NCBI GenBank assembly: GCA_019637795.1
Contig: JAHBUY010000007.1
Location: forward strand, 150,286 to 214,285
Reading direction: 5' to 3'
Length of the DNA: 64,000 bases
From: a bacterium
GTDB lineage: Bacteria > Desulfobacterota > Binatia > HRBIN30 > CADEER01
Below, piece by piece: positions 11,557 through 24,037 of the stretch. The notes below the pieces were generated by a model. The model was not told where the DNA came from. It did not search any database and worked only from the letters and a program-made list of their open reading frames with translations. Both the position numbers and the translations under genes were made by a program. Position 1 is the first letter of the stretch. Each line of letters opens with the position of its first letter.

Positions 11557-11630
11557 GCCCCCGTAGCTCAGGTGGATAGAGCACAGGATTCCTAATCCTG
11601 GGGTCAGGCGTTCGAGGCGCCTCGGGGGTA
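11557..11630 (+). tRNA. tRNA-Arg(CCT), chimeric at attL (3' half apparently element-derived)
   Basis: Cloverleaf: acceptor GCCCCCG/CGGGGGT, anticodon stem CAGGA/TCCTG with loop TTCCTAA, T-arm AGGCG-TTCGAGG-CGCCT. Confidence 0.9.
11588..11603 (+). repeat. attL core
   Basis: ATTCCTAATCCTGGGG, identical to 23995-24010; spans the anticodon loop. Confidence 0.92.
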
Positions 11631-11670
11631 CGTAAAATCAGCAACTTGCGCCGGCGGCACCCGCGAAATT

Positions 11671-11688
11671 GTTTCCATCTGTTTCCAC
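11671..11688 (+). promoter_or_regulatory. Putative integrase arm-type sites (attL side)
   Basis: GTTTCCATCT GTTTCCAC tandem; related tandem GTTTCCATC at 23874-23893 near attR. Confidence 0.65.
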
Positions 11689-11711
11689 GGGTGCCGCCGG
11701 GTCGCAAGGTC

Positions 11712-12875
11712 TCAGCCTTTGGCCGCGTCGGCGGCGATGCCGTCGAGGCTCGCCAGCGCCGACGGATCGTGCTCGGCGCGCAGCCAGTGCGCGTAGACGC
11801 GACGGGTGACAGAACTGTCCTTGTGGCCACAGAGCGCCGCCACCTCCGTGTCCGCCCGGCCCGCCATGAGCAGCGTCGACGCGAAGGTGTGCCGCAGGGA
11901 GTGCAGCCGCACGCGCTTCACGCCGGCGGCATCGCAGGCCGGGTGCAGCGCCTTGTGGGCAAGCGTGCTGCGATGCACGGGCGTCCCCTCGCTTGACGGG
12001 AACACCCATCCGTCCGCGGTCGGCGGACATGCCAGCTTCCAGCGCCGCAGGGCGGCGACCAATTCGGGGCGGAGCGGGATGCGGCGCTTGCCGGCGCTCG
12101 TCTTGGGCGGCTTGTAGGTCGGCCCGCTGGCCGGCTCGTCGCGCCGATGGGCCCACGTGACGCTGCGCGCGATCCGCACCTCGCCCTTGGTCAAGTCGAT
12201 GTCATCCCAGATGAGCGAGGTCAGCTCCCCTACCCGCCCGCCGGTCAGCACCGCCATGTGCAGGAAGGTCTGGTACATGCCCGGCGTCGCCTGTGCGATG
12301 ACGGTGCGCGCCTGCTCGGCGGACAGCACTGTGGTCGGGTCCACCGCGCCGTCCTCCAACTCGGCTGCCAGCTCGGCGAGCGCCTTGACGGACTTCGCCG
12401 CGACCACGCGCCGGCAGCGCGGCACGACGTCCACCGGGTTGCGGTCGATGTACTCGTGGCGGACGGCATAGTTGAACACGTCGGCTGCGGTGGTCAGGAA
12501 CTTGTTGACCGTCTGCGGCGCCAGCTTCGCCGCCAGCCGATTGCGGCAGAAGGCTTCCAGGTGCCGCACGCGGATCTGGTCGATGCGGTGCTCGCCGAGG
12601 ATCGGCACAAGGTGCAGGTCGAGGTGAACTTGGTAGCCGGCGATGGTCGCCACGCTCACGCGCTCGGCCCGCTCAGCCAGCCAGTCCGCCGCCACTGCCT
12701 TGAAGGTCGGCAGTTGGTCAGGCGCTAAGAAGGTGCCCTTCTGAAGCTGGCTCGTCACCTGCGCCAGGTAGGCGTAGGCAGCCGGCTCATCGGCGCACGG
12801 CTTGATGAAGCGCCGGCCGGTGTCGTCGCGCCAGTCGGCGCACCACTTGCCGCGAACCTGTCGGACCGTTGCCAT
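11712..12875 (-). CDS. int: Tyrosine recombinase/integrase
   Basis: N-terminal arm-binding-like RGKWCADWRD; catalytic set GGRVGEL (R), PPKT (K), HSLRHT (HxxR), GHKD (H), VYAH (Y); AAGGAGG SD. Confidence 0.95.
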   Translation of the reverse strand: MATVRQVRGKWCADWRDDTGRRFIKPCADEPAAYAYLAQVTSQLQKGTFLAPDQLPTFKAVAADWLAERAERVSVATIAGYQVHLDLHLVPILGEHRIDQIRVRHLEAFCRNRLAAKLAPQTVNKFLTTAADVFNYAVRHEYIDRNPVDVVPRCRRVVAAKSVKALAELAAELEDGAVDPTTVLSAEQARTVIAQATPGMYQTFLHMAVLTGGRVGELTSLIWDDIDLTKGEVRIARSVTWAHRRDEPASGPTYKPPKTSAGKRRIPLRPELVAALRRWKLACPPTADGWVFPSSEGTPVHRSTLAHKALHPACDAAGVKRVRLHSLRHTFASTLLMAGRADTEVAALCGHKDSSVTRRVYAHWLRAEHDPSALASLDGIAADAAKG

Positions 12876-12894
12876 GCTCTCCCCTCCTTTGGTG

Positions 12895-13401
12895 TTACCG
12901 TCGCTTGAGCGACTGCATCAGCTCGTTGATGTCGCTCATGACTTCCGCGTGCGCTGGATTGAGGTCCGGGTGGTACTTCTTGGCGAGGCGGCGGTACACC
13001 TCACTGTCGACGCTGGGCGTCTGTCCGCGCCCGCCGAACATCTCGAACAACCGTTCCCGGTTCATGCGATTGGCGCGCTTCTCCATGCGGGCGAGGCGCA
13101 GGTCGAATTGTAGTTGTTTGACCTTTTCGCGGGCGGCGTCGCGCGCGCCCGCGATGGTCTCGACTCGGCGATGCAGAGCACGGATCTCGTCCAGGCGCCG
13201 CTCGAGCTGCGCCCGGAGGGACGCCAGCTCTGCCGCGACGCGCTCCTCGCGGTCGAGAAACTGCGTCAACCACGCCGGCATGGCGAGTACGCCCCGTTCC
13301 CATCGAGCTACCGTATTGGCGGCGACGCCTAGCTCCGCCGCAAGGGCAACCTGGGTTAACGCGCGGCGATGGCGATACTCTCGAAGGGCAGACGGCGTCA
13401 T
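12895..13401 (-). CDS. XRE HTH regulator fused to coiled coil and C-terminal J-domain-like segment
   Basis: LREYRHRRALTQVALAAELGVAANTVARWERG (XRE); C-terminus YRRLAKKYHPDLNP...EVMSDINE (helix II-HPD-helix III). Confidence 0.8.
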   Translation of the reverse strand: MTPSALREYRHRRALTQVALAAELGVAANTVARWERGVLAMPAWLTQFLDREERVAAELASLRAQLERRLDEIRALHRRVETIAGARDAAREKVKQLQFDLRLARMEKRANRMNRERLFEMFGGRGQTPSVDSEVYRRLAKKYHPDLNPAHAEVMSDINELMQSLKRR

Positions 13402-13454
13402 ACGATGGTCGGCTATACCATACGTATGGCGGCGCCGTCTATACCTATCGTATG
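13399..13454. promoter_or_regulatory. AT-richer operator-like cluster upstream of the XRE gene
   Basis: Perfect palindrome CCATACGTATGG (13418-13429), flanking inverted CATACGAT/ATCGTATG, direct repeat CTATACC x2. Confidence 0.55.
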
Positions 13455-13736
13455 CGTGGTGCTGAGCCGGTACACCGTCACCGCCCCCAGCTCCGCCCCG
13501 CAGAGCGCGCAGCCCGCGTCGAGGTCGCCGGGTAGCGGCGCCCCCGGCCGCTCCTGCATGTAGCGGCAGCGCGGCTGCGAGCAGGTGACGCGCGTCCACA
13601 GACTCGCTGCGGCGCAGCGATCCGGCGCAGCCATTGCCGGCCGGGCCGGCGGGTGCGATGCGCCCGCCATGGACTGGACGTATCTGGCGATGGGCGCGGG
13701 CATGATCCTGCTCATGCTGCTGCTGACCTCGCTCAT
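13413..13736 (-). CDS. Hypothetical protein with Cys pairs (possible Zn ribbon)
   Basis: Starts at an ATGA overlap with the upstream ORF; C....C and CALC motifs; competes with an antisense peptide ORF. Confidence 0.4.
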   Translation of the reverse strand: MSEVSSSMSRIMPAPIARYVQSMAGASHPPARPAMAAPDRCAAASLWTRVTCSQPRCRYMQERPGAPLPGDLDAGCALCGAELGAVTVYRLSTTHTIGIDGAAIRMV

Positions 13737-13743
13737 CGACTAG
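13669..13743 (+). CDS. 24-aa hydrophobic peptide (possible type I toxin-like)
   Basis: MDWTYLAMGAGMILLMLLLTSLID*, a single TM-length helix; no clear SD. Confidence 0.35.
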   Translation: MDWTYLAMGAGMILLMLLLTSLID

Positions 13744-13867
13744 CCCACCACCGCACCCGACACCGCGGGCACCGCCCCGGCACCTCCCGCGGCGCGTAGA
13801 GCAGCACCAGGCCGCAGGCGCACGTCACGCGGACGCCGCCAGGGACGAGACGGACGGTGGCCGTCAT
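13733..13867 (-). CDS. 44-aa Zn-ribbon-like protein
   Basis: MTATVRLVPGGVRVTCACGLVLLYAPREVPGRCPRCRVRWWASR; ATGA overlaps at both ends. Confidence 0.55.
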   Translation of the reverse strand: MTATVRLVPGGVRVTCACGLVLLYAPREVPGRCPRCRVRWWASR

Positions 13868-13980
13868 GGCTGCCGGCCCCGGAGGGGCGGACGCCGAGTA
13901 GCCTGCATCACCGGCCGATCACGCGCGACGGCCGTGAGCCCACGCAGGCACCGCCGCGCAACCGCCTCCCGCATCATCAC
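13864..13980 (-). CDS. Small basic hypothetical protein (~38 aa)
   Basis: GTGA overlap with the upstream stop and ATGA overlap with the downstream start. Confidence 0.4.
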   Translation of the reverse strand: MMMREAVARRCLRGLTAVARDRPVMQATRRPPLRGRQP

Positions 13981-14882
13981 GCCGCCGGCACCGCCGCCGT
14001 AGGCTCCGGCTGCGGCGCGCGCTCCAGCTCCTCGCGCGCCCGCACGGCGGCCTCGCGCCGGCGCTGCGCGCGACGCTCCAGCCGCTCCTGCGCGTGGCGG
14101 ATGCCGCTGCCCGGCCCCTCGGCCTCCAGCGCCGGCCCGCTCGGCTTCTCGGCGGTGGTCACGGCGCCGACGTCGTCGACGTCGCCGGTCGCCATCTGGC
14201 CATAGACCTGGCGGATGGTCTCGGCGTCGGCGGCGATGGCGTCGAGCACCTCGAGCACCTCCGCCTGGTCGGCCGGCAGCGGCGTGGCCGTGATCGCCTC
14301 GTGGACGCGCCGACGCACGGGTGCGTACGCCTTGCCGGCGCGGCCGTCGAGCTCGTCGGCCAGCACGCCAAGCAGCCACAGGTTGCGGTCGGCCGCGGCC
14401 TGCTCGACGAGGTGCGTAAGCGTCCGCGCGCTCGCCCGCGACACGCGCTGCAAGGCGGTGAACTGCGTCAGCGTGTTCGCCAGCTCGGCCGCCTGCTGGC
14501 GCTGCTCATGGTGCTGCCGCGCCGCATCGACCTGGAAGTCGGCGAGCCCGTCAACCAACTCGTGCCGGTTGAACGGCTTGACCGCCGGGACCGGGCGAGC
14601 GCGGAGCGCCGCCAGGTACGGGTCGGACAGCGCGGCCCGCTCGGCCTGCAGCGCCTGCGCCCGACTGAGCGCGGCGTCCGCCAGCGGCCGCGCCCGCCTC
14701 ACGGCGTCGCGGCGCGCCTGCGCCTTGCGCCCGGCGCGGTAGTCCGCCTGGTAGGCCGCGACGATGTCGGGGGCATCCATCGCGGCCCGCTCGATCTGCA
14801 ACGCATCCCGCGCGGCGATCATGGCGGTGCGCGTCGTGGCGATCTCGGCCGCGGCCTGCTGGAGTGCTCGGCGATCGATCAT
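13977..14882 (-). CDS. All-helical hypothetical protein (~301 aa)
   Basis: Ala/Arg/Gln-rich helices; ATGA overlap with the upstream ORF fixes the start. Confidence 0.75.
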   Translation of the reverse strand: MIDRRALQQAAAEIATTRTAMIAARDALQIERAAMDAPDIVAAYQADYRAGRKAQARRDAVRRARPLADAALSRAQALQAERAALSDPYLAALRARPVPAVKPFNRHELVDGLADFQVDAARQHHEQRQQAAELANTLTQFTALQRVSRASARTLTHLVEQAAADRNLWLLGVLADELDGRAGKAYAPVRRRVHEAITATPLPADQAEVLEVLDAIAADAETIRQVYGQMATGDVDDVGAVTTAEKPSGPALEAEGPGSGIRHAQERLERRAQRRREAAVRAREELERAPQPEPTAAVPAA

Positions 14883-15115
14883 CGGGCACCCCACTTCCCC
14901 GCCGCACTGCCGCGGGGGCCGAGCCGGCCGTCGACCACGTCGACGGCGCCGCGCCCCGGCGGCGGCGGACTCACGCGCGTCTGCGCGGCGACGGCATCGG
15001 TGCGCTGCGCCCGCGGCCGCACAAGCGCGGCGGCCTCAGCCGGCGTGAAGCCCGGCGATCGCCGCGCCCCACTGCGACGCGCGGCGGCGATGGCGTTGGT
15101 AATCGTGTTCTTCAT
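14879..15115 (-). CDS. Hypothetical protein (78 aa)
   Basis: GGAGG SD then MKNTITNAIAAARR... Confidence 0.6.
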   Translation of the reverse strand: MKNTITNAIAAARRSGARRSPGFTPAEAAALVRPRAQRTDAVAAQTRVSPPPPGRGAVDVVDGRLGPRGSAAGKWGAR

Positions 15116-15173
15116 CTCGAATCCTCCGGTAGTGGCTCGCGTCTCGGCGCCCGCGAGCGATGGCGCATGAAGG

Positions 15174-16604
15174 TCAGCCCCAGAGCACGCGGGAGATACT
15201 GCCGGTGGCGCGGCCACCGTGCGCGATGGCGAGCGCCACCACGTTGGCGACGTCGTCATGGCCGCCCCGCGGATGGTCGACGGAATCGCGGCCGGTGCGT
15301 GACGTGGTGCGCCGCTGGAGCAAACTGAACTGCCGCATCATCCGGTCGGCAGTCACCGAGCGCGCCGGGTCCGGCAACGAGACCCGCCCACCGACCAGCC
15401 ACGGCAACGCGAGTACGTATGCCTCCGAGCGCGTGTGCAGCGTCGGCATCACGCCGAGCCCGACGCGACGCAGCGCATCAACGAGGAACTCTGATGCGTA
15501 CCGGTCCGACCACACGACGCCGACGCCATACGGCCGCAGGAAGTCGCGCAGGCGCTCGACCGCCGCCGCCACCTGAAACGGGGGGCGAGTCTCGAGCAGG
15601 TCGTCGACCACGATCAGCGGCGCCCCATGGCGCGTCTCGCGATGGTAGACGCAGGCCGTGAACGAATCGCCCGCCTGGGTGCCGGACGCGGCGTCGATGG
15701 CCGCGGCGTAGGCGTGCCCCATCGGCGGCCGGCGCACCCGGTCCTGCTCGACGCAGCCCTCGAGCTCGGTCCAGCCAATCAGCCCCTCGATGTCGGCCCG
15801 GAACTCCGCATCCCACTCCGCCCGCGCCGCCGCGGGATCATCGGCGTGCGCCTCGTCGATCACCGTCTGCGCGATCGTCGGGTTCATGCGGCGGGTCGGC
15901 GCCTGCCACGTCAGCACCGGCGAGCCGTCGACGCCGTGGTGGGCGCGATACCAGTCCCAGAGCACCCCACGCCGCGCATACGGCGAGGAGATGCACAGCA
16001 GCAGCGAGCCCGGCACACGCGCCAGCCCCGGCGTCACCGCGCGCACCAGCTCGGCGTCCGGGTTGGCGGCGTCGTCCGTCGGCAAGAACGCGCACTCATC
16101 GATCACCGCGCCGGCCAGCGAATAACCGCGGGTCGAGCGGAAGGACGCGGTGTGAATCTCGATGACACAGCCCGTCGAGAGCGTCAGGCTCTCGCTGGTC
16201 TCGGCGGTGACCAGCCGGTCGAGCATGGGCGATGCGCGCAGGAGCCCGCGCACGTAGCGGAACGCCACCCGCGCCTGGCGGCGGTCGGGACACAAGAGCA
16301 TCGCCGTCGCCAGCTCCCCCGGCCCGAGCACGGGGCGGAAGTCGCGCGAGCAGGCGAGATAGACGATCAGGAACGCGGCGAGCAGCGTCTTGCCCGAGCC
16401 GCGGCCGGCGATCACCATCGCCCGCGATGCCGGCACGGTCGGCGCCGCCGAGCGCCCCGAGCAGGCGCGGTAGATCGCCAGCGCCTCGGCATCGAGCGGC
16501 AACCCGTAGATCGCCGCCACCAACGCCCGAGCAGCAGCGAACGATGGGCCGCCGAAGGTCCGCCCGCACAGGTGCGGGTCGGTCATCCAGTCGAGCGGCG
16601 TCAC
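15174..16604 (-). CDS. terL: Terminase large subunit-like protein
   Basis: Walker A VIAGRGSGKT, Walker B AVIDECAF, ISSP coupling motif, RNase H-like AAIDAASG and HDDVAN. Confidence 0.85.
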   Translation of the reverse strand: MTPLDWMTDPHLCGRTFGGPSFAAARALVAAIYGLPLDAEALAIYRACSGRSAAPTVPASRAMVIAGRGSGKTLLAAFLIVYLACSRDFRPVLGPGELATAMLLCPDRRQARVAFRYVRGLLRASPMLDRLVTAETSESLTLSTGCVIEIHTASFRSTRGYSLAGAVIDECAFLPTDDAANPDAELVRAVTPGLARVPGSLLLCISSPYARRGVLWDWYRAHHGVDGSPVLTWQAPTRRMNPTIAQTVIDEAHADDPAAARAEWDAEFRADIEGLIGWTELEGCVEQDRVRRPPMGHAYAAAIDAASGTQAGDSFTACVYHRETRHGAPLIVVDDLLETRPPFQVAAAVERLRDFLRPYGVGVVWSDRYASEFLVDALRRVGLGVMPTLHTRSEAYVLALPWLVGGRVSLPDPARSVTADRMMRQFSLLQRRTTSRTGRDSVDHPRGGHDDVANVVALAIAHGGRATGSISRVLWG

Positions 16605-16789
16605 GCGGCAGGCCTCCCGCAGGTCGGGCACCGCCACCGCTCGAGCGCCCGATCGAGCGCCCGATCGTCGTCGCGGTCGACGATCACACGGGGATGCCCA
16701 TCGACGCCGCACCACACACCAGCGCGGGCACGCCAGATGCCAGCAGCGGGCGGCACGTCCCGGCAGGGCGGCGCGTCGTGCCAGCTCAT
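16601..16789 (-). CDS. Small hypothetical protein with CPTC motif
   Basis: 62 aa; 4-nt overlaps on both sides. Confidence 0.55.
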   Translation of the reverse strand: MSWHDAPPCRDVPPAAGIWRARAGVWCGVDGHPRVIVDRDDDRALDRALERWRCPTCGRPAA

Positions 16790-17061
16790 GCGCCGTCCTC
16801 GCCAATCGGCGGCACCGGCACGGGGAACACGCCGGCGATCTCCTCGGCGCCGTCGATGTCGACGTAAACCACCGTGACGTGCGACGGCGGCGGGTCGGCG
16901 GGAATGAAGGAGTCGAGGTCGGCGTCGGCGTCGCCAGCCAGCTCGAGGGCGCGCTGCGCCGCCTCGCGCCGGGCGCGCACCTGTGCGGCGATGGCGGCGC
17001 CGAGCGCCTGCGCGGCGTGGCGGTCGGCGGCGGAGGACCAGCGGCGGTGATCGCGGGTCAT
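16786..17061 (-). CDS. Hypothetical protein (91 aa)
   Basis: 4-nt overlaps on both sides. Confidence 0.6.
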   Translation of the reverse strand: MTRDHRRWSSAADRHAAQALGAAIAAQVRARREAAQRALELAGDADADLDSFIPADPPPSHVTVVYVDIDGAEEIAGVFPVPVPPIGEDGA

Positions 17062-17495
17062 CGGATGTCCTCGCCCGCCTGCGGCGATCCTGGGGCCGGG
17101 AAGTCGCTCTGAGTGTTGGCCGCCGCGCGGTGGCGCGCGAGGGCGGCGGTGCCGGCCGCAACCAACGCGGCCCGGTGCTCCTCGCTCAGTCGCCGGCGCC
17201 GGTACGGCCGCAGGATCGCCAGCACGGCGTCGAGGTGGTCGACGTGAAAGACGACGCGCACCTCAGCGTCGCCCAGCGCCCGCTCGACGAACGGCAGCGC
17301 CCGCAGATGCACCCCGATGCGCGGCCGGTCGGTCCACGCGAACAGCCGCTCGCCGCCCTGGGCGCCGACGTAGCCATGCCGGCAGGCGATGCGAGCGAGC
17401 CAGGGGCGGTCAGCGACGGGCCAGTCGGCGGCCTGCGGCTCGAAGACGATGCGGTAGCGGCGGCTATACCGGGCGGATAGGTCGATGCAGGTCAT
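17058..17495 (-). CDS. Hypothetical phage-type protein (145 aa)
   Basis: Globular composition; 4-nt overlaps on both sides. Confidence 0.7.
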   Translation of the reverse strand: MTCIDLSARYSRRYRIVFEPQAADWPVADRPWLARIACRHGYVGAQGGERLFAWTDRPRIGVHLRALPFVERALGDAEVRVVFHVDHLDAVLAILRPYRRRRLSEEHRAALVAAGTAALARHRAAANTQSDFPAPGSPQAGEDIR

Positions 17496-18010
17496 GCGGG
17501 ATCGTCTCCTGTGGTGTCGGCGGACACCTCGGCGTCGACCACGGCCGCCTCGGCCGGCGGCGCCGCCTCGGCCGGCGCGGCAGCGGTCGTGGCGCGGTCG
17601 CGCAGGTAGGCGTCGAGCGACGGCAGGTCGGCAGCGCGGTCCGGGCGCAGGCCGAGCGCCTGCAGCATCCGCGAAAGCGACTGAACGTGCGTCACGTAGC
17701 CGCGGCGCAAGATCGGCAGCAGCTCGCCAGCCGCGTCAACCAGGCGGTCGGCCTGGAACACATGCCCCTCGATGGTCGAGCAGATGAGCGCCGCCGCGGC
17801 GCAGCGGTCGACCAGCAAGCGCTCACGCGCTGTCAGCCGGTCGTAGCCGCCGGCATCGGCGGCGAGGTCCTGGCGCAGCTCGGCGAGCGCCCGAGCAATC
17901 CAGGTCCGCTGGTCGAGACTGCCGGCGGCGAGGTGGCGGGCGAGCGAGCGGGCGCCGTGTTTCGGCGGCGTGCCGGCGCGTCGGCGCATAGGCACCGGGC
18001 GGCTAGCCAT
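17492..18010 (-). CDS. Terminase small subunit-like protein
   Basis: N-terminal KHG and C-terminal LGL.P motif typical of P27-like TerS; upstream of terL in the same operon. Confidence 0.55.
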   Translation of the reverse strand: MASRPVPMRRRAGTPPKHGARSLARHLAAGSLDQRTWIARALAELRQDLAADAGGYDRLTARERLLVDRCAAAALICSTIEGHVFQADRLVDAAGELLPILRRGYVTHVQSLSRMLQALGLRPDRAADLPSLDAYLRDRATTAAAPAEAAPPAEAAVVDAEVSADTTGDDPA

Positions 18011-18431
18011 GGCGGATCACCGCCTGAAATCCCGTACCCCTGCCCAGCGTCTCGGTGGAAACAGATGGAAACGGACCCGCGCCGTTGCTGGATTTTTCGG
18101 CGGTCGCAGGACTGCCCATCCTGTGGTCCGCCTCGAGCGCTGCGCGCACGGCGCCGCGATCGAAGCGCCAGTACTTGCCGCAGCGCCGCGCCGGCAGCCG
18201 ACCAGCACGCGCCTGCGCGCGGAACCACGTCACCGGCAAGTGGAACTCGGCGGCCAGCTCATCGGCGGTCGCGAAGGCGGTGCGCGATGGCGGCACATCG
18301 GCTGGCGCGGTCATCGCCGCGACCAACTGCACCTGCGCGCCGGCGAGGGCAGCCACGGCGGCGGCCCGATCGGTCGCGGACAGCTCGGCGCAGGCACGAT
18401 CCAGCGTCCGGCGCAGCTCCTCGAGCGTCAT
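18003..18431 (-). CDS. Excisionase-like (HTH_17/MerR-type) DNA-binding protein
   Basis: FATADELAAEFHLPVTWFRAQARAGRLPARRCGKYWRFDRGAV winged-helix Xis signature. Confidence 0.75.
   Translation of the reverse strand: MTLEELRRTLDRACAELSATDRAAAVAALAGAQVQLVAAMTAPADVPPSRTAFATADELAAEFHLPVTWFRAQARAGRLPARRCGKYWRFDRGAVRAALEADHRMGSPATAEKSSNGAGPFPSVSTETLGRGTGFQAVIRHG
18055..18072 (-). repeat. Internal inverted exact copy of the attL arm-type 18-mer
   Basis: GTGGAAACAGATGGAAAC is the reverse complement of 11671-11688. Confidence 0.85.
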
Positions 18432-18527
18432 CGGCGGCCCCGGGGCGCAATCTGTGAAGCATTGCCGGCGGCGGAGGTGCCGGTCGCGGGGGGAATCATC
18501 ATGCCCCATCCCCTACAGCCGACCCCA

Positions 18528-18668
18528 GACGGATACGGCGTATCTGTCTCGCCGGTCCGACCCAGGCTCAGACCAGGCTCACCAGGCTCACGGTCCATAT
18601 GTCTCTCGCGCGCGCGCGCGCTATGCGGGTAAACGGACGGAGAGCCTGATAAGCCTGCTTGGGCCTGG
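18528..18668. promoter_or_regulatory. Putative replication origin of the element
   Basis: CCAGGCTCA x3 (18562, 18573, 18582), a (CG)7 run at 18607-18621, three inverted degenerate copies (GAGCCTG, AAGCCTG, GGCCTGG); directly downstream of the D5 helicase gene. Confidence 0.65.
18533..18543. promoter_or_regulatory. ATAC-GGC-GTAT palindromic site, copy 1 of 4
   Basis: Identical 11-mers at 20154, 20979, 22870; here the arms extend to GACGGATAC/GTATCTGTC. Confidence 0.7.
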
Positions 18669-18687
18669 CGGTGGGTCATTTGGGCCG

Positions 18688-20100
18688 TCATTCCTGTTCT
18701 TGGGCTGCCGCTCGCAGCCGAACACCGACGCGAAACCGGACGCCACCGATCTTCTCGGCGTGGATGCCGAGCCGGTGCAGCTCGTCGCCGAAGTCGCGCT
18801 TCTTGAGCGCGTCGTGCCTCAGCTCGGCGACGTAGGCATCGAACAGCACCTTGAACGGCGTGCGTGCTCGCGGGTCGCGCTCGCAGTACTCGTCGACCCA
18901 CTGCCCGACAGCGTCCATCTCGGCGCGGTAGGCGGCGGTGGCGGCGCGGACGATCTCGGGCGGGCGCAGGCCGTCGGCGTACCAGGCGATGGCGCCGTCG
19001 ATGATCCAACGGAGGATGCCGGGCAGCTCGTCGGTGAGCGAGGCGGCGAAGTCGCGGACCAGATTGGTCTGCAGCCGCTCCTCGAGGTTGACGACGAAGG
19101 GCACCAGATGGATGCGGCGCCAGATGGCGGGGTCGGTGCCGCGGACGTCGGGCTTGTGATTCCCCGCCAGCCAGAACGTGTGCGTCGGCGCGAACTCGAA
19201 GAAGTCCTGCCGCATGTACCGCGCCTTCAACTGGTCGCCGCCGGTGAGCCACTTGACCTTCGTTTCGGCCAGCCCGCGACCCTGCTCGGTCTCGATGGCC
19301 GAGACCAGGCGGGCGCCCATCAAGTCGGCGATCTCGGTCGGGTGCGCGTCGTGCTTGGTCGCCATCAACAGCGACGGGGCGGCGGTGCGGGCGTAGTCGC
19401 CGAGTGCGGCATGGAGCAGCGACAGGAAGGTCGACTTGCCGTTTGCGCCGCTGCCCCACAAGAACAGCAAGCACTGCTCGCGGACCGACCCCGTGGCGCT
19501 GTAGCCGGCGGCGCGCTGCAGGAAGTCGATCAGCGCCGTGTTGTCGAAGGTCAGCGTCAAGAACTCCATGAACCGTGGACAGGTCGCGTCCGGGTCATAG
19601 GCGACTGGCGTGCGGCGGCTGATGAGGTCCTCGCGGCGGTGCGGGCGCAGCTCGCCAGTGCGGAGGTCGACGGTGCCGTTCTCGCAGGTCAGCAACCACG
19701 GGTCGCGATCGAAGGCGTCGGGCGGGAGCGCCACGCGCCGATCGGCAGCGGCGAGCGCCAACATCGCCTCCAGCCGGTTGCGCTTGCCGGACGCAAGGAA
19801 GTGTTGCGCCAGGATGGCCCGCTCCTCGGGCGAGCCAGCGGCGCCCACCTCGGCCCACCACTGCGCGATGGTGGTGGTCGCCAGCGCCATCGTCGCGGCC
19901 GTAGCATCGGGCTGCCAGCGTCCCTCCGTCCAGACGTGCCAGCCGGCGCCGCGGTGCGCGTAGCGCAGCGTGTCGGCGTGCGCGTCGATGAACGCCTCGG
20001 CGTTGGCGACGTCGGTGGTGCGCCACTTGGCGTCGCGGATGGCAGCGGGGTTGGGTAGATCGCTCGCGCCGAAGAGGTCTACGATCTTCCCGCGGCTCAT
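18688..20100 (-). CDS. P4/D5-family SF3 helicase (phage/plasmid primase family C-terminal part)
   Basis: D5_N region (TDVANAEAF...W), Walker A GSGANGKST, KWLTGGD, GNHKP, WRRIHLVPF. Confidence 0.9.
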   Translation of the reverse strand: MSRGKIVDLFGASDLPNPAAIRDAKWRTTDVANAEAFIDAHADTLRYAHRGAGWHVWTEGRWQPDATAATMALATTTIAQWWAEVGAAGSPEERAILAQHFLASGKRNRLEAMLALAAADRRVALPPDAFDRDPWLLTCENGTVDLRTGELRPHRREDLISRRTPVAYDPDATCPRFMEFLTLTFDNTALIDFLQRAAGYSATGSVREQCLLFLWGSGANGKSTFLSLLHAALGDYARTAAPSLLMATKHDAHPTEIADLMGARLVSAIETEQGRGLAETKVKWLTGGDQLKARYMRQDFFEFAPTHTFWLAGNHKPDVRGTDPAIWRRIHLVPFVVNLEERLQTNLVRDFAASLTDELPGILRWIIDGAIAWYADGLRPPEIVRAATAAYRAEMDAVGQWVDEYCERDPRARTPFKVLFDAYVAELRHDALKKRDFGDELHRLGIHAEKIGGVRFRVGVRLRAAAQEQE

Positions 20101-21008
20101 CGGGGCGCATCCTGGGCTGTCATGCGGCGCACCGTACCGGCCGTGCGTGCCGGATACGGCGTATGTGTCCGCTGCCCTGACCCGGCATCGTAGGATTCGA
20201 CGCTGGCCAAGATGGCGTTGACTTCGCGTTTCCCCAGCGGCTTGTCGCAGCGTTCCGTGTTCGCGGTGTGGACGGACGCGCAGAGCAGCTTCCACTCCAC
20301 CTTCCGCGCCCGCATCGACGCCGCGTAGCGGAACAGCGTGTCGTTGCGCTCGCCCTTGCCGATCGTGTCCGGCAGCCGGAACGGGTCGCCGTGCTCGCCG
20401 CGGAGCTCGTCGAGGTGGCGAATCGCCGCGACCCAGAGCGGCGGCAGCTCGGGCAACGGGAGGTCGGCGGCCGAGTAGCCGATCAAGTAGGCGTAGCCGC
20501 GGCAGGGCGGCGGAAAGACCAGGCTGTTGTCGCCGCGGATGTCGACACCGGCACCCAGCTTGGCGACCGAATTGCGAATCCCGCCGGGCGCCTGGAAGTA
20601 TCGGTGCTCGCCGTGGTGCGGGGTCGTGACCGTTGGCGCATCCGGTAGCGGGCCGTAGCGCTGTTCCAGGTCGTGGAGTGTGTCGCAGCCGTCGACGCCG
20701 TGTTTGCGGTCGGCGTCGAGGATCAGCAGGCGATCGGTGGTGAGGAGCGCGCAGTCGGCATCGGGAAACCGCTGCCACCAGCGGTCTAGTTGGTCGAGGT
20801 CATCGCTCGCCCGCTGGTGGCCAACACCAGTCGGCCCGATGCAGGTCCAGCGTGTGCCCGGCCGCATCGGCACCACGCGCGTGTGCCAGTGCGCGATGTA
20901 CCACTGTGCGGCGCGCAGGCCGCGCGGCGTCTGTTGTGGCGGCGTCATGAGCGGCGGTGTACGTGGCGCCGCGCCCACATACGGCGTATCCGTCCCCGGC
21001 GTCATCAT
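20097..21008 (-). CDS. Bifunctional DNA primase/polymerase (Prim-Pol + PriCT)
   Basis: LLILDAD, VTTP..G.H.YF, GVDIRG, PriCT-like GERNDTLFRYA. Confidence 0.85.
   Translation of the reverse strand: MMTPGTDTPYVGAAPRTPPLMTPPQQTPRGLRAAQWYIAHWHTRVVPMRPGTRWTCIGPTGVGHQRASDDLDQLDRWWQRFPDADCALLTTDRLLILDADRKHGVDGCDTLHDLEQRYGPLPDAPTVTTPHHGEHRYFQAPGGIRNSVAKLGAGVDIRGDNSLVFPPPCRGYAYLIGYSAADLPLPELPPLWVAAIRHLDELRGEHGDPFRLPDTIGKGERNDTLFRYAASMRARKVEWKLLCASVHTANTERCDKPLGKREVNAILASVESYDAGSGQRTHTPYPARTAGTVRRMTAQDAPR
20154..20164. promoter_or_regulatory. ATAC-GGC-GTAT site, copy 2
   Basis: About 55 nt upstream of the D5 helicase start. Confidence 0.65.
20979..20989. promoter_or_regulatory. ATAC-GGC-GTAT site, copy 3
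   Basis: At the 5' end of the Prim-Pol gene. Confidence 0.65.
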
Positions 21009-22645
21009 CCGGCCACCGTTCGTGCTGCTGTCGACTGCCAGCCGCGGCCGGCGACGATGCGGCGCACCTGTCGGCGGGTGAGCGCATCGGCCGCGGCGCC
21101 CTTGCTCATGCCCGGCACGTAGCCCGCACGTAGCGCCGCGCGTTGCCCATCGCTGGCAGGTTGGCTGCGCCAGCGCGCATCCGCCCGGGCGATGCGCCAG
21201 CGTGCCGGGTCGGCGCGCAGCAGCTCCTCCGCGACGCCCTGTGCCAGCTCGAGCGACGGCACGGCGCGATGCACGGTTTCGACGGTCCGCGTCTCTCGTG
21301 ATTGCCACAGCACGTCGACCGTCCCGTCCGCCTCGGTCGACAGGATCACCACGCCATCGCCCATCGACACGGCGTAACTGCCATCGACCGTCAGCCAGGC
21401 GATGCGACTGTCGCGCGGCGCGAAGAGCGCCACCTCGCGCGCGGTCAGTGCCGCGGCCCGTCCCTGCTCCGCTGCCTCCCGTGCTGCGGCCTGGGCCGCG
21501 TCTGCGGCGAGCACGCCATCGGCCAGCGCCGCCGCCGGCGTCTCGAACAGTACGGCGGCCGTCATCAGGTCATGGGTGCCTGTCGCGCCGACGCAATCGA
21601 GTACCAGGCAGTCCGCCTTTGCCGGGTGCTTCCGCGCGCCGCGCCCGAGCATCTGCTGATAGAGCACGGGGCTGCGCGTCGGACGGGCGATGCAGACGCA
21701 ATCCACGCGCGGAAGGTCGACGCCTTCCGTGGCGACGCCGACGTTGACCAGCACGGGCAGCTCGCCGGCGCGCACCGCCGCGAACAGTGCGGCCCGCTCG
21801 TCGGTAGGGGTGGCGCCCGTAACCAGCGCGGCGTGCAGTCCGCGCCCCCGGCACGCATCGACGGTTGCCTCGGCCACCGCGATCGTCGGCGCGAACACCA
21901 GCGAGACGCGGCCCGATGCGTGCTCGGCCAGTGCGGTGGCGATGTGTACCGGCGCGTCGGCGCCGCTCAGCGCCTCGCCGAGCGCCCCTTGCGCGTAGTC
22001 GCCATCGACGCGCGGTAGGCTGGCGAGGTCGACCGCCAGCGCAATCTGCAGCCCGCGGAAGTCGCACAGGTAGCCCTGGCGGATCAGCTCGATCAGCGAG
22101 GTCTGATACACGATCTCCTGATACGTCGGCGCCAGGCCGCGCCCGTCGGCGCGTGTCAGCGTGGCGGACACGCCGAGGAGCTGCGGCGCGTCGGCCCCAT
22201 CGTCGAGCGCCCCGACGCCGGCGAGCACCGTCTGGTAGCTCTGCGCGGCGCTGTGGTGCGCTTCGTCCACCACGACGAGCGAAAAACGGCCGGCGGCGCC
22301 GATCTGCTCGAGCCGGCGCGGCTGCCGCAGCGTCGGGACGCTGCCGACGATCACGGCGGCGTCAGGCGTGTTGTGGTCGGCGCGGACGATGCCGATGGCG
22401 CGGGCATCGCCGAGCACATAGCCGATCGTCGCGGCGGCCTGGTCGATCAGCTCCTCGCGGTGCGCGAGCACCAGCGCCCGGTCGCCGCGTCGGACATGCT
22501 CGGCGACCAAATGACCAAACGTGACCGTCTTGCCGCCGCCGGTCGGGATTTGGATTGCCGCACGGCGGATACCGCGGAGCGCCGCGGCGCCGATCGCCGC
22601 GAGCGCATCCCGTTGGTAGGGGCGCAGCGCGATTCCCGCGCTCAT
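21005..22645 (-). CDS. SF2 DEAD/DEAH-box helicase
   Basis: LRPYQ, PTGGGKT, DEAHH, SAT, EGVDLP, QMLGRGAR. Confidence 0.92.
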   Translation of the reverse strand: MSAGIALRPYQRDALAAIGAAALRGIRRAAIQIPTGGGKTVTFGHLVAEHVRRGDRALVLAHREELIDQAAATIGYVLGDARAIGIVRADHNTPDAAVIVGSVPTLRQPRRLEQIGAAGRFSLVVVDEAHHSAAQSYQTVLAGVGALDDGADAPQLLGVSATLTRADGRGLAPTYQEIVYQTSLIELIRQGYLCDFRGLQIALAVDLASLPRVDGDYAQGALGEALSGADAPVHIATALAEHASGRVSLVFAPTIAVAEATVDACRGRGLHAALVTGATPTDERAALFAAVRAGELPVLVNVGVATEGVDLPRVDCVCIARPTRSPVLYQQMLGRGARKHPAKADCLVLDCVGATGTHDLMTAAVLFETPAAALADGVLAADAAQAAAREAAEQGRAAALTAREVALFAPRDSRIAWLTVDGSYAVSMGDGVVILSTEADGTVDVLWQSRETRTVETVHRAVPSLELAQGVAEELLRADPARWRIARADARWRSQPASDGQRAALRAGYVPGMSKGAAADALTRRQVRRIVAGRGWQSTAARTVAG

Positions 22646-22848
22646 GTGGCGTCGTTCCGTCGCTGATGTCGCGGCGGCTCGAGGAGCTGATGCGCCTCGA
22701 CAAAGAACTGTTCGAGGTCCTTCCGTAGGGCGCGCTCCGCCCGCTCGCGGGCGACGGAGCGCGACCAGGCGCGCAGGAGCGCGCGGAGGGCCGGGTTGCG
22801 GGACCGACGGAGCGCCGATGGCAGTGCGGGTGTCGTCATGCGCCGCAT
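22642..22848 (-). CDS. Small basic hypothetical protein (68 aa)
   Basis: ATGA overlap with the helicase start. Confidence 0.55.
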   Translation of the reverse strand: MRRMTTPALPSALRRSRNPALRALLRAWSRSVARERAERALRKDLEQFFVEAHQLLEPPRHQRRNDAT

Positions 22849-22869
22849 GGTAGGCGGCGCAGATGACTG

Positions 22870-22880
22870 ATACGGCGTAT
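22870..22880. promoter_or_regulatory. ATAC-GGC-GTAT site, copy 4
   Basis: Intergenic, upstream of the replication operon. Confidence 0.7.
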
Positions 22881-22890
22881 TCGTCGCGCG

Positions 22891-23721
22891 CTACTTCTGC
22901 GCGACCTTCAGGGCCTTCCGCACGGACGCAAATTGCAGGATCACGCGCCGCGCACCGCCGCGCGCGGCCTCCGTGTATTCCACGGTGATGGTCCGCGCCT
23001 CGCGGTCCACGTCGACTTCGGTAGCGAGCGGTAGGAGGTTGCCGTCCATCAGGGCCAACGCATCCTCGACGGTGTCCGGGTCGCCGAGCACCTTTAGGAA
23101 CCCCTTCCATGTCTGCGGTTGGGTCGCCGCCCACACGCGACGAAAGAGCACTGTGTGTGGCTGCTTGGGTTTCCCTTTGCCCGCACGGCCGGCGGCGCTA
23201 TTTTGAGTCCGTATTTTCGTGCGGTCTGCCACCACTTTCCGCCGCGCCTCCGCGTCGCCGACGATGTAGAGCGCTTGCTCGCCGAGCCACCGGTCGATGA
23301 TTGCGCGCTCCGATTGGTCGTCGGCCGTCATGGTGAGCAGCCCGTGCATCATGTCGCCGGACCAGTCGGGGTGCCCGCCCGTGGCGTGCAGGCGTTTCCA
23401 GGCCGCTCTATACGTGCGGTCGAGTTCCTTCTGTCGCTCGCGCACGTCGGTATCGCTCTCGCCGGGACGCCGGGCGCGCTCAATGGCCGCCTCAGCCGCG
23501 ATTACCGCGCAGAGTGCTACCGCCGTAACCCGCCGTCGCTGCGCCGTCGCTCTATACGTCTCGGCGTCTCGCTGGCGCGGTGTGCCGTCGCGGTTCCAGG
23601 TCGACTCCGCCATCAGGCGCCGTCGCACCTCGTCGAGGATGACGGCGCGGAACGGATCCTGTCGCGATTCCTTCGCCGGCGGCGTTGCCCCCGGCTTCCG
23701 CGTCGTGCGTGTCGCCATCAT
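22891..23721 (-). CDS. Hypothetical protein (276 aa), first gene of the element
   Basis: Long ORF with protein-like composition; basic C-terminal region. Confidence 0.7.
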   Translation of the reverse strand: MMATRTTRKPGATPPAKESRQDPFRAVILDEVRRRLMAESTWNRDGTPRQRDAETYRATAQRRRVTAVALCAVIAAEAAIERARRPGESDTDVRERQKELDRTYRAAWKRLHATGGHPDWSGDMMHGLLTMTADDQSERAIIDRWLGEQALYIVGDAEARRKVVADRTKIRTQNSAAGRAGKGKPKQPHTVLFRRVWAATQPQTWKGFLKVLGDPDTVEDALALMDGNLLPLATEVDVDREARTITVEYTEAARGGARRVILQFASVRKALKVAQK

Positions 23722-23873
23722 CCACCACCCGTTCGTGGGACCCGATCTACTGTTGCACCGCCGCCGGCGGGGCGCTCGGGTCTGCGCCGTTCGGTGGCCG
23801 ACCTAGCCGGCGGCGGTATGGCTATGGCTACGCTACCAACTCGATTCCCGGCGAAGAAAGAGGCGCACGGCGT

Positions 23874-23893
23874 GTTTCCATCGTGTTTCCATC
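23874..23893 (+). promoter_or_regulatory. Putative integrase arm-type sites (attR side)
   Basis: GTTTCCATC-GT-GTTTCCATC, about 100 bp inside the attR core. Confidence 0.65.
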
Positions 23894-23994
23894 ACGGTGC
23901 GTCCACACCGCACGGTGCGTCAGCCGGTCCGCGAAAACGCTGAGGCTTCCGACGTATCGGACGCACGGCGCGGCGAGCCTCATGACTTGACCGC

Positions 23995-24037
23995 ATTCCT
24001 AATCCTGGGGCCGTGCGTTCGAATCGCGCCGGGGGCA
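23995..24037 (+). repeat. attR: core plus displaced 3' half of tRNA-Arg(CCT)
   Basis: Core followed by CC-GTGCG-TTCGAAT-CGCGC-CGGGGGC-A; CGGGGGC pairs perfectly with the 5' GCCCCCG at 11557. Confidence 0.92.

Follow-up and report, generated by a model that had tools for sequence, protein, structure and literature searches.

The 64,000-nt window analysed here (C10:150286-214285, contig JAHBUY010000007.1) belongs to a bacterial host genome of 6,157,168 bp and 71.8% GC and harbours a 12.4 kb island at a tRNA-Arg(CCT) gene. The host is an uncultured organism from wastewater, and the closest matches of its TrmD protein (68–69%) are in Candidatus Binatia MAGs. The 11-mer ATACGGCGTAT occurs in this island as an exact match on the plus strand at 18533, 20154, 20979 and 22870. 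Judged by their sequence surroundings, these boxes are most likely the invariant core of four promoter cassettes, each about 50 nt long. That they are the site of a regulatory factor inside four promoters is probable, whichever the sign of its effect. Our favoured reading is more specific and also more tentative, with a probability of about 0.4: the boxes would belong to co-regulated leaderless promoter cassettes, in which a factor binds a dyad at the -35 position and activates transcription. If a transcription-factor site is taken for granted, the balance tips only slightly towards activation and away from repression.

All genes of the island lie on the minus strand and the box is therefore read in its functional direction as ATACGCCGTAT. 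On this strand all four sites share the layout GAC-N2-ATACGCCGTAT-N17-TAnnnn-N7-ATGA:

22836-22885, minus strand: cassette P4, with GAC at 22885-22883, the box at 22880-22870, the -10-like hexamer TACCAT at 22852-22847 and the ATG at 22839-22837, which is the start of orf65
20945-20994, minus strand: cassette P3, with GAC at 20994-20992, the box at 20989-20979, the -10-like hexamer TACACC at 20961-20956 and the ATG at 20948-20946
20120-20169, minus strand: cassette P2, with the box at 20164-20154, the -10-like hexamer TACGGT at 20136-20131 and the ATG at 20123-20121
18499-18548, minus strand: cassette P1, with the box at 18543-18533, the -10-like hexamer TAGGGG at 18515-18510 and the ATG at 18502-18500

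Box and ATG are separated by exactly 30 nt in each of the four cassettes. Likewise in four of four, exactly 17 nt lie between the box and the -10-like hexamer downstream of it, and the centre of the dyad falls at -36 with respect to the 5'-terminal ATG. Counting the A of this ATG as +1, the invariant positions are GAC (-46 to -44), the box (-41 to -31), TA (-13/-12) and CATGA (-1 to +4). The 30-nt spacer has otherwise drifted, with pairwise identities of 30–57% among the four cassettes. Upstream of GAC the identity is at background level (8–38%), thus the conservation is directional, down the coding strand. The spacers are near background, yet 21 specified positions are invariant in all four copies, which argues for selection. 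The cassettes constitute repeat family D1; the boxes themselves are single copies spaced 825–1891 bp apart.

Three of the four boxes are intergenic, in two gaps of 51–56 nt and one of about 185 nt, the fourth lies in an inserted gene tail, and all have the same orientation on the coding strand. P4 sits in the 51-nt gap behind unk276, whose stop is at 22891. The P4 ATG opens orf65, the stop of which overlaps the helicase ATG at 22645 as ATGA. P3 occupies the 56-nt gap after the helicase stop (21005), therefore box 3 is intergenic, and its ATG at 20948 is the start of the primase-polymerase gene (PrimPol), since nine homologues begin at the aligned position. The automatic gene model of PrimPol, with 303 aa, is 20 residues too long in comparison to these homologues and takes in box 3 (20949-21008). 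From the P2 ATG at 20123, 8 codons are read in frame with PrimPol, up to a TGA that overlaps the ATG of the D5 helicase gene at 20100; this D5 start is confirmed by alignment to the homologues in L025 and L022. The P1 ATG at 18502 opens an open reading frame (ORF) of 24 codons with a stop overlapping the ATG at 18431 (MTLEEL...), the probable start of an xis-like gene with an HTH_17 domain. No Shine-Dalgarno sequence is found upstream of three of the four cassette ATGs.

The count of the 11-mer was zero in 100 dinucleotide-preserving shuffles. Genome-wide there are five exact copies, where about 0.6 are expected, and four of these five are inside the island. The fifth, at C5:936067, encodes part of the conserved TrmD motif DTPYGGG, lacks any of the flanking features of the boxes and is a chance match. 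When the search was done for the extended forms GAC-N2-ATACGCCGTAT and box-N17-TA-N11-ATG, they were found in the island only. The original prediction had started from the letters of this region alone and described four identical palindromic boxes, in one orientation, that were too frequent for chance and had not been noticed outside the element. Position, orientation and identity are confirmed by exact matching, the frequency by the shuffles and the genomic count; the motif is not equally common across the host chromosome, and its sole other copy is the coincidence in trmD. With regard to the palindrome, the two 4-bp arms are symmetric but the GGC centre between them is not, hence near-palindrome is the better term. 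The 11-mer is moreover the core of a longer dyad of 21 bp, GAC-N2-ATAC-GCC-GTAT-N2-GTC. Boxes 1 and 4 have this dyad in perfect form, while its distal half, with the promoter-distal GAC, is perfect at all four. Two of the boxes had been thought to lie in coding sequence. Only box 2 does, as PrimPol starts at 20948. The prediction also held that the boxes precede successive replication and excision units, and indeed a protein bound to any of them would be placed so as to control initiation.

The exceptional location of box 2 is explained by an insertion of its cassette into a gene junction. Homologues of PrimPol end with ...SVESYxAGRRAA, whereas the protein encoded in the window has about 24 further residues (GQRTHTPYPARTAGTVRRMTAQDAPR), and these are encoded by cassette 2. 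In L025, PrimPol and D5 overlap directly (GTGA). From the conserved ...GCCGGG to the D5 start there are 84 nt in the window and 12 nt in L025. Cassette 2 thus appears in these comparisons as an insertion of about 72 nt, missing from the closest relatives and dropped into the PrimPol/D5 junction. This assignment rests on protein alignments and direct reading; a MAFFT nucleotide alignment of the junction was uninformative. Relatives of PrimPol are absent from the host family and reach at most 38% identity within the class; metagenomic relatives are 59–68% identical. In related PrimPol/D5 islands the replication genes are packed in operons without such cassettes. One cassette is inserted relative to the homologues, but gene shuffling mediated by cassettes was not seen.

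Host promoter features were derived from the genome itself, based on 3,434 ORFs with a high GC content at third codon positions. The pattern TANNNT is enriched 6–9 nt ahead of first start codons (counts of 43/15/11/22, background 3–5), and the excess of the dinucleotide TA at this distance from the ATG or GTG corresponds to about 10% of the ORFs. Such an excess directly before start codons indicates that the organism uses leaderless transcripts. In the 91 clear cases the -10 element reads TAG(G/C)(G/C)T and the discriminator is GC-rich. TTG is present 17–18 nt upstream of the -10 in 44% of them, compared to 8.5% in the background. Genes led by a Shine-Dalgarno sequence are also common in this host. 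A scan of the island with the sigma-70 consensus gave no match, which is expected for a GC-rich host.

The cassettes match the leaderless promoters of the host in the position of the -10 (d = 7), the type of hexamer and the discriminator. TTG is found in the -35 window of none of the four. Instead, the window is filled by the box centre CGCCGT, so that the box coincides exactly with the DNA normally read by sigma region 4.

From these features we propose that the cassettes split one co-directional string of genes into four units, orf65-helicase, PrimPol, D5 helicase and xis-orf172, and that transcription of each would start at the cassette ATG. One sequence-specific, probably dimeric factor, encoded by the island or provided by a helper phage, would dock on the box and set the four promoters together. 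It may do so by recruiting the host RNA polymerase to promoters without a -35 element, comparable to the Mu late promoters or to the AlpA-driven operons of phage-inducible chromosomal islands (PICIs). In three units, the 5' ATG opens a short ORF with a stop overlapping the next ATG (ATGA), which suggests translation by termination-reinitiation. We lean towards activation on the basis of the exact 17-nt spacing between box and -10 despite drift, the lack of a -35 in four out of four cassettes, the total invariance, which extends to the asymmetric centre, and the fact that no repressor matches the box.

Several points weigh against an activator. A dyad at -36 is in the classic position of a repressor operator, and class II activators usually are centred at -41 to -43. 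The fixed spacing could have been inherited from recent copying of one cassette instead of being selected. Among the host TANNNT leaderless promoters 56% also have no strict TTG, which makes the missing -35 weak evidence for activator dependence, and the final T is absent from two of the four cassette -10 hexamers. The searches of the island proteins against Pfam, PHROGs and NCBIfam yielded no sigma-like, Mor/C-like, ribbon-helix-helix-like or other additional DNA-binding domain. Conservation in homologues had been suggested as a check of the original prediction and it speaks in the same direction, as a repeated motif equivalent to the box was not found in the related PrimPol/D5 islands. Exact-pattern scans of genome, viral and metagenome contig collections retrieved single scattered chance matches only and no contig with more than one box. 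Finally, the island is contained in three runs labelled as metatranscriptomes, but their contigs are DNA-like, with lengths of up to 189 kb, and carry no information on 5' ends.

The island and its recognised genes are:

11583-24035, no strand: island of 12.4 kb at tRNA-Arg(CCT), bounded by the att repeat at 11583-11628 and 23990-24035
22891-23721, minus strand: unk276, an ORFan; of the island genes the one next to attR
22642-22839, minus strand: orf65, small and basic, beginning at the P4 ATG, no family match
21005-22645, minus strand: ResIII/DEAD-box helicase
20097-20948, minus strand: Prim-Pol + PriCT_1 primase-polymerase, 283 aa
18688-20100, minus strand: D5_N/DUF5906 primase-helicase, start confirmed by alignment
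18003-18431 (or 18003-18509), minus strand: HTH_17 (excisionase/AlpA-type) xis-like protein, 142 aa
15174-17057, minus strand: TerL, homologue of the terminase large subunit
12895-13398, minus strand: XRE-J, a regulator with XRE helix-turn-helix (HTH), coiled coil and minimal J-domain
11712-12917, minus strand: integrase

The tRNA-Arg(CCT) gene itself extends over 11557-11631, and the att repeat constitutes repeat family D7. From attR the order is unk276, orf65, helicase, Prim-Pol, D5, xis-like gene, orf172 with orf145, TerL and orf352, followed by two small zinc-ribbon-like ORFs, XRE-J and the integrase. No capsid or tail genes were recognised in the island although TerL is present, which makes it satellite-like. 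The two small, cysteine-rich ORFs between orf352 and XRE-J are located at 13733-13867 and 13413-13736. The one of 44 aa has a weak match to a zinc beta-ribbon (E = 6e-4), and the one of 107 aa runs with its 3' end across the XRE-J operators described below. In public sludge assemblies (runs X5 and X1), contigs break or branch exactly at the att core at both island ends (11574-11603 and 23995-24024). Judging by these contig ends only, the population could combine occupied sites with empty ones or with excised forms of the island.

Further repeats were noticed at three places. In cassette P4, a strong inverted repeat, GTCATCTGCGCCGC ... GCGGCGCATGAC at 22833-22866, brackets the -10-like hexamer and the orf65 ATG, and the RNA fold of this cassette (z = -2.7) is unique among the four. 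The repeat may serve as an additional operator, or form a hairpin by which the ATG is concealed when transcripts read through from unk276. Upstream of unk276 and close to the inner edge of attR, the region 23872-23921 has the direct-repeat pair CACGGTGCGTC (23893 and 23911) and the tandem pair GTGTTTCCATC (23872 and 23883). These repeats might function as arm sites of the integrase or in regulating the first gene. The intergenic region between D5 and the xis-like gene contains CCAGGCTC three times (18562, 18573 and 18582; clustered within 18562-18589). Behind these come a (CG)n run at 18607-18620 and a short patch richer in AT. The stretch 18562-18620 is a better candidate replication origin than the boxes.

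Which protein might bind the box? XRE-J had been named as a possible regulator of the boxes and appeared promising at first, because the densest ATAC/GTAT cluster of the whole genome lies over its start, at its own promoter. The automatic gene model of XRE-J comprises 128 aa and misses 13279-13398, so that the HTH is cut off. Homologues of the protein are 34–41% identical and share an invariant recognition helix, NTVARWERG. A 17-bp palindrome is found 7–11 nt before the ATG in all five homologue loci with DNA. It reads CTATACCAG(T/C)GGTATAG in L299, L300 and L302, CTATCCAGGGTGTATAG in L301 and CTATACGGCGTGTATAC in L303. Its right arm carries the -10-like TATAGT in three of the five (L299, L300 and L302); in L303 the hexamer is TATACT. 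Three sites of the same type are in the island, and they are the only N5 sites of this type in the genome:

L299:9976-9992, L300:5534-5550, L302:~308-324: operators of XRE-J homologues; those of L301 and L303 are just upstream of the gene
13413-13429, minus strand: O_B, CCATACGTATGGTATAG, over the XRE-J promoter
13439-13455, minus strand: O_A, GCATACGATAGGTATAG, over the XRE-J promoter
17464-17480, minus strand: O_C, CTATCCGCCCGGTATAG, 15 nt inside orf145, at the junction of the excision and packaging modules

Taken together, the five homologue loci and the three island sites point to CTATAC-N5-GTATAG as the operator of XRE-J; O_C could serve as a roadblock. The boxes have the 4-bp arms in common with this operator, and with the L303 version nine contiguous bases. 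They do not belong to the CTATAC-N5-GTATAG family with its 6-bp arms and 5-bp gap: their spacing is N3, the outer arm bases are not T/A, and the GCC centre is invariant and flanked by GAC. The different geometry, together with the fact that even the remote target O_C is N5, argues against XRE-J as the obvious box binder and weakens this part of the original prediction. Low-affinity binding to the boxes, or binding in an altered mode, might still occur. The distinct N5 operator of XRE-J leaves the N3 boxes to another factor.

Besides XRE-J and the integrase, the HTH_17 xis-like protein is the only recognisable DNA-binding protein of the island. Its match to HTH_17 (E = 9e-6) is just below the Pfam cutoff, which indicates a distant family member. 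The proteins without a homologue in the box-less relatives are unk276, orf65, orf145, orf352, orf107 and the xis-like protein. Among the candidates, the xis-like protein or one of the ORFan proteins would be the likeliest to bind the box. For unk276, the second candidate regulator of the original prediction, a word-indexed search returned only the protein itself and an exhaustive search two weak C-terminal relatives. There was no match in PDB or Pfam and no detectable DNA-binding domain, and the AlphaFold model was unusable (predicted local distance difference test score of 45). Thus, no support was found for this ORFan as a regulator, and equally nothing excludes it.

The original prediction saw the boxes as a distributed operator array silencing the replication genes. 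Regulatory sites before each unit are supported by our results, but the 17-nt spacing to the -10-like hexamer and the missing TTG agree with an activator or a substitute for the -35 no less than with a silencing repressor. In such an array the four promoters would be ordinary leaderless promoters of the host, and the box would be an operator over the -35 by which an island repressor (XRE-J, unk276 or another one) silences each unit and perhaps blocks read-through, similar to the L5 stoperators. We consider this possible, though not probable. The dyad centre at -36 is squarely over the -35, the -10 and the discriminator are host-like, many host leaderless promoters do without TTG, and an integrated island must keep its replication genes off. 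The sites have one orientation relative to transcription and three of them are in very short gaps, as is the case for L5 operators and stoperators (PMC9283540). XRE-J homologues are found at divergent switch regions like CI-type repressors, and the XRE-J operator has the ATAC/GTAT arms of the box, the L303 operator ATACGGCGTGTAT being the box plus 2 nt. However, all eight inferred operators of the XRE-J type (five from homologues, three from the island) are N5 with TATAC/GTATA arms, whereas the boxes are strictly N3, without the outer T/A and with the invariant GCC centre and GAC flanks in addition, and both geometries are unlikely to be recognised by one rigid HTH dimer. None of the candidate repressors has a box near its own promoter. 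A second repressor could not be identified, as unk276 is an ORFan without recognisable DNA-binding domain, and an operator would not need the exact spacing of 30 nt. A direct -35-type element, read by a dedicated sigma factor or by an RNA polymerase or specificity factor of a helper phage, would account for an invariant 11-mer at a fixed 17 nt from a conserved TA and for the absence of a host-type -35. It would also suit a satellite-like island, with TerL but no capsid genes, that must sense its helper. Nevertheless it is very unlikely, given that no sigma-like domain is encoded in the island, that no phage or other multi-box locus was found in the genome, viral and metagenome collections, and that dyad symmetry is unusual for sigma -35 elements.

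Similarly improbable is a function outside transcription, with the boxes as origin iterons of PrimPol/D5, as terminase packaging (pac) sites or as recombination sites. Their location in the replication module, the iteron-like CCAGGCTC triplet and (CG)n tract adjoining box 1 and the cassette that moved into a gene junction would be in agreement with this. But the boxes are single copies 0.8–1.9 kb apart, unlike clustered iterons or pac sites, a better origin candidate exists at 18562-18620, and the directional conservation to the -10-like TA and the ATG at fixed distances is not explained. Least likely of all is an element acting at the RNA level, for example a hairpin in the mRNA leader or a site bound there by a protein, or a leftover without function from a recent duplication of cassettes. 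Pairing of the 4-bp arms is conceivable, and the cassettes resemble copies of each other. On the other hand, folding of the four regions (z-scores 0.15, -1.1, +1.3 and -2.7) revealed no shared fold or conserved stem-loop and the box is not a hairpin in any of the minimum-energy structures; the hairpin reading was rejected for this lack of a common fold. If transcripts start at the ATG, the box would not be transcribed from its own promoter, and a remnant would not be expected to keep 21 positions invariant in four of four copies while the spacers are near background.

The activator reading has its closest parallel in phage Mu, where the C protein activates four promoters of the late class (Plys, PI, PP and Pmom) that have a -10 but no -35 and a dyad overlapping the -35 region (PMC2582627). 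The likeness consists in four dispersed promoters within one mobile element, a -10 without typical -35 and a dyad at fixed distance overlapping the -35; both promoter features, the missing host-type -35 and the fixed dyad, are present in all four cassettes. In Mu, however, the site is an imperfect dyad of 16 bp centred at -43.5, compared to a 21-bp dyad around -36 in the island, the 11-bp core of which is invariant, and the island transcripts would be leaderless. A protein of the Mor/C family is not detectable in the island; activation is a proposal here. The model of the original prediction is closest to L5 and the Cluster A mycobacteriophages, whose repressor uses operators and stoperators throughout the genome (PMC9283540, PMC6550527). 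Common to both is a short private motif spread across a mobile element, in promoters and short gaps and in one orientation relative to transcription. The L5 sites differ in being asymmetric 13-mers, more than 20 in number, bound by a monomer and without fixed distance to a start codon. The island has four near-palindromic sites, each exactly at -41 to -31 from the ATG, and its recognisable repressor-like protein, XRE-J, has a different operator.

[quoted passage not shown] The island resembles these as a small, tRNA-integrated, satellite-type element with an integrase, pri/rep genes and a regulator of the AlpA/excisionase type (HTH_17). It differs in that the HTH_17 protein is a distant member encoded downstream of box 1 and that it also encodes XRE-J and its own TerL; the AlpA binding sites in PICIs are undefined. 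In the PeSL promoter cassettes of T4-type phages, an early promoter is joined to a stem-loop terminator, and the genes they flank are variable (PMC2839356, PMC4122927). Like these, the cassettes are short conserved intergenic promoter elements repeated between genes, with cassette 2 inserted relative to related islands, but they lack a conserved stem-loop and the genes flanked are core replication genes. Within the island, the XRE-J operator CTATAC-N5-GTATAG has the same ATAC/GTAT arms and is likewise unique in the genome. In contrast to the boxes it is N5 with T/A as outer arm bases and a variable centre, and it is located over the XRE-J -10 and inside orf145, not at a -35. Replication-origin iterons would be expected in tandem clusters, which the boxes do not form; a separate clustered repeat, the CCAGGCTC triplet, exists instead.

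Promoter or operator motifs spread over a mobile element are familiar from Mu, L5, phiC31, P2/P4 and PICIs. The principle of coordinating the genes of a mobile element in this way is thus already known, and it is the specifics that are neat here: the leaderless geometry, exact to the base pair, the leader ORFs coupled by ATGA and the cassette inserted in a gene junction. A further, rather unlikely extension of the activator reading is that of a portable leaderless promoter module of about 50–70 nt, consisting of factor box, -10 and 5' ATG(A). This module would have copied itself within the island, once into the PrimPol/D5 junction, and its reader would be an ORFan protein of the island or a factor of a helper phage, taking the place of -35 recognition. 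If this were true, the module would be a transcription switch specific to satellites and not described before, in a Binatia-like lineage that is uncultured, with termination-reinitiation from upstream ORFs as a standard mode of translation. The island yields two proposed operator/promoter families, a 21-bp box in 50-nt cassettes and the 17-bp XRE-J operator, which could provide handles on the switch protein, on leaderless initiation and on ATGA-coupled translation. If our favoured reading is correct, the four cassettes would give a clean view of how the genes for replication and excision are wired in a small phage-satellite-like element from a high-GC lineage that is uncultured.

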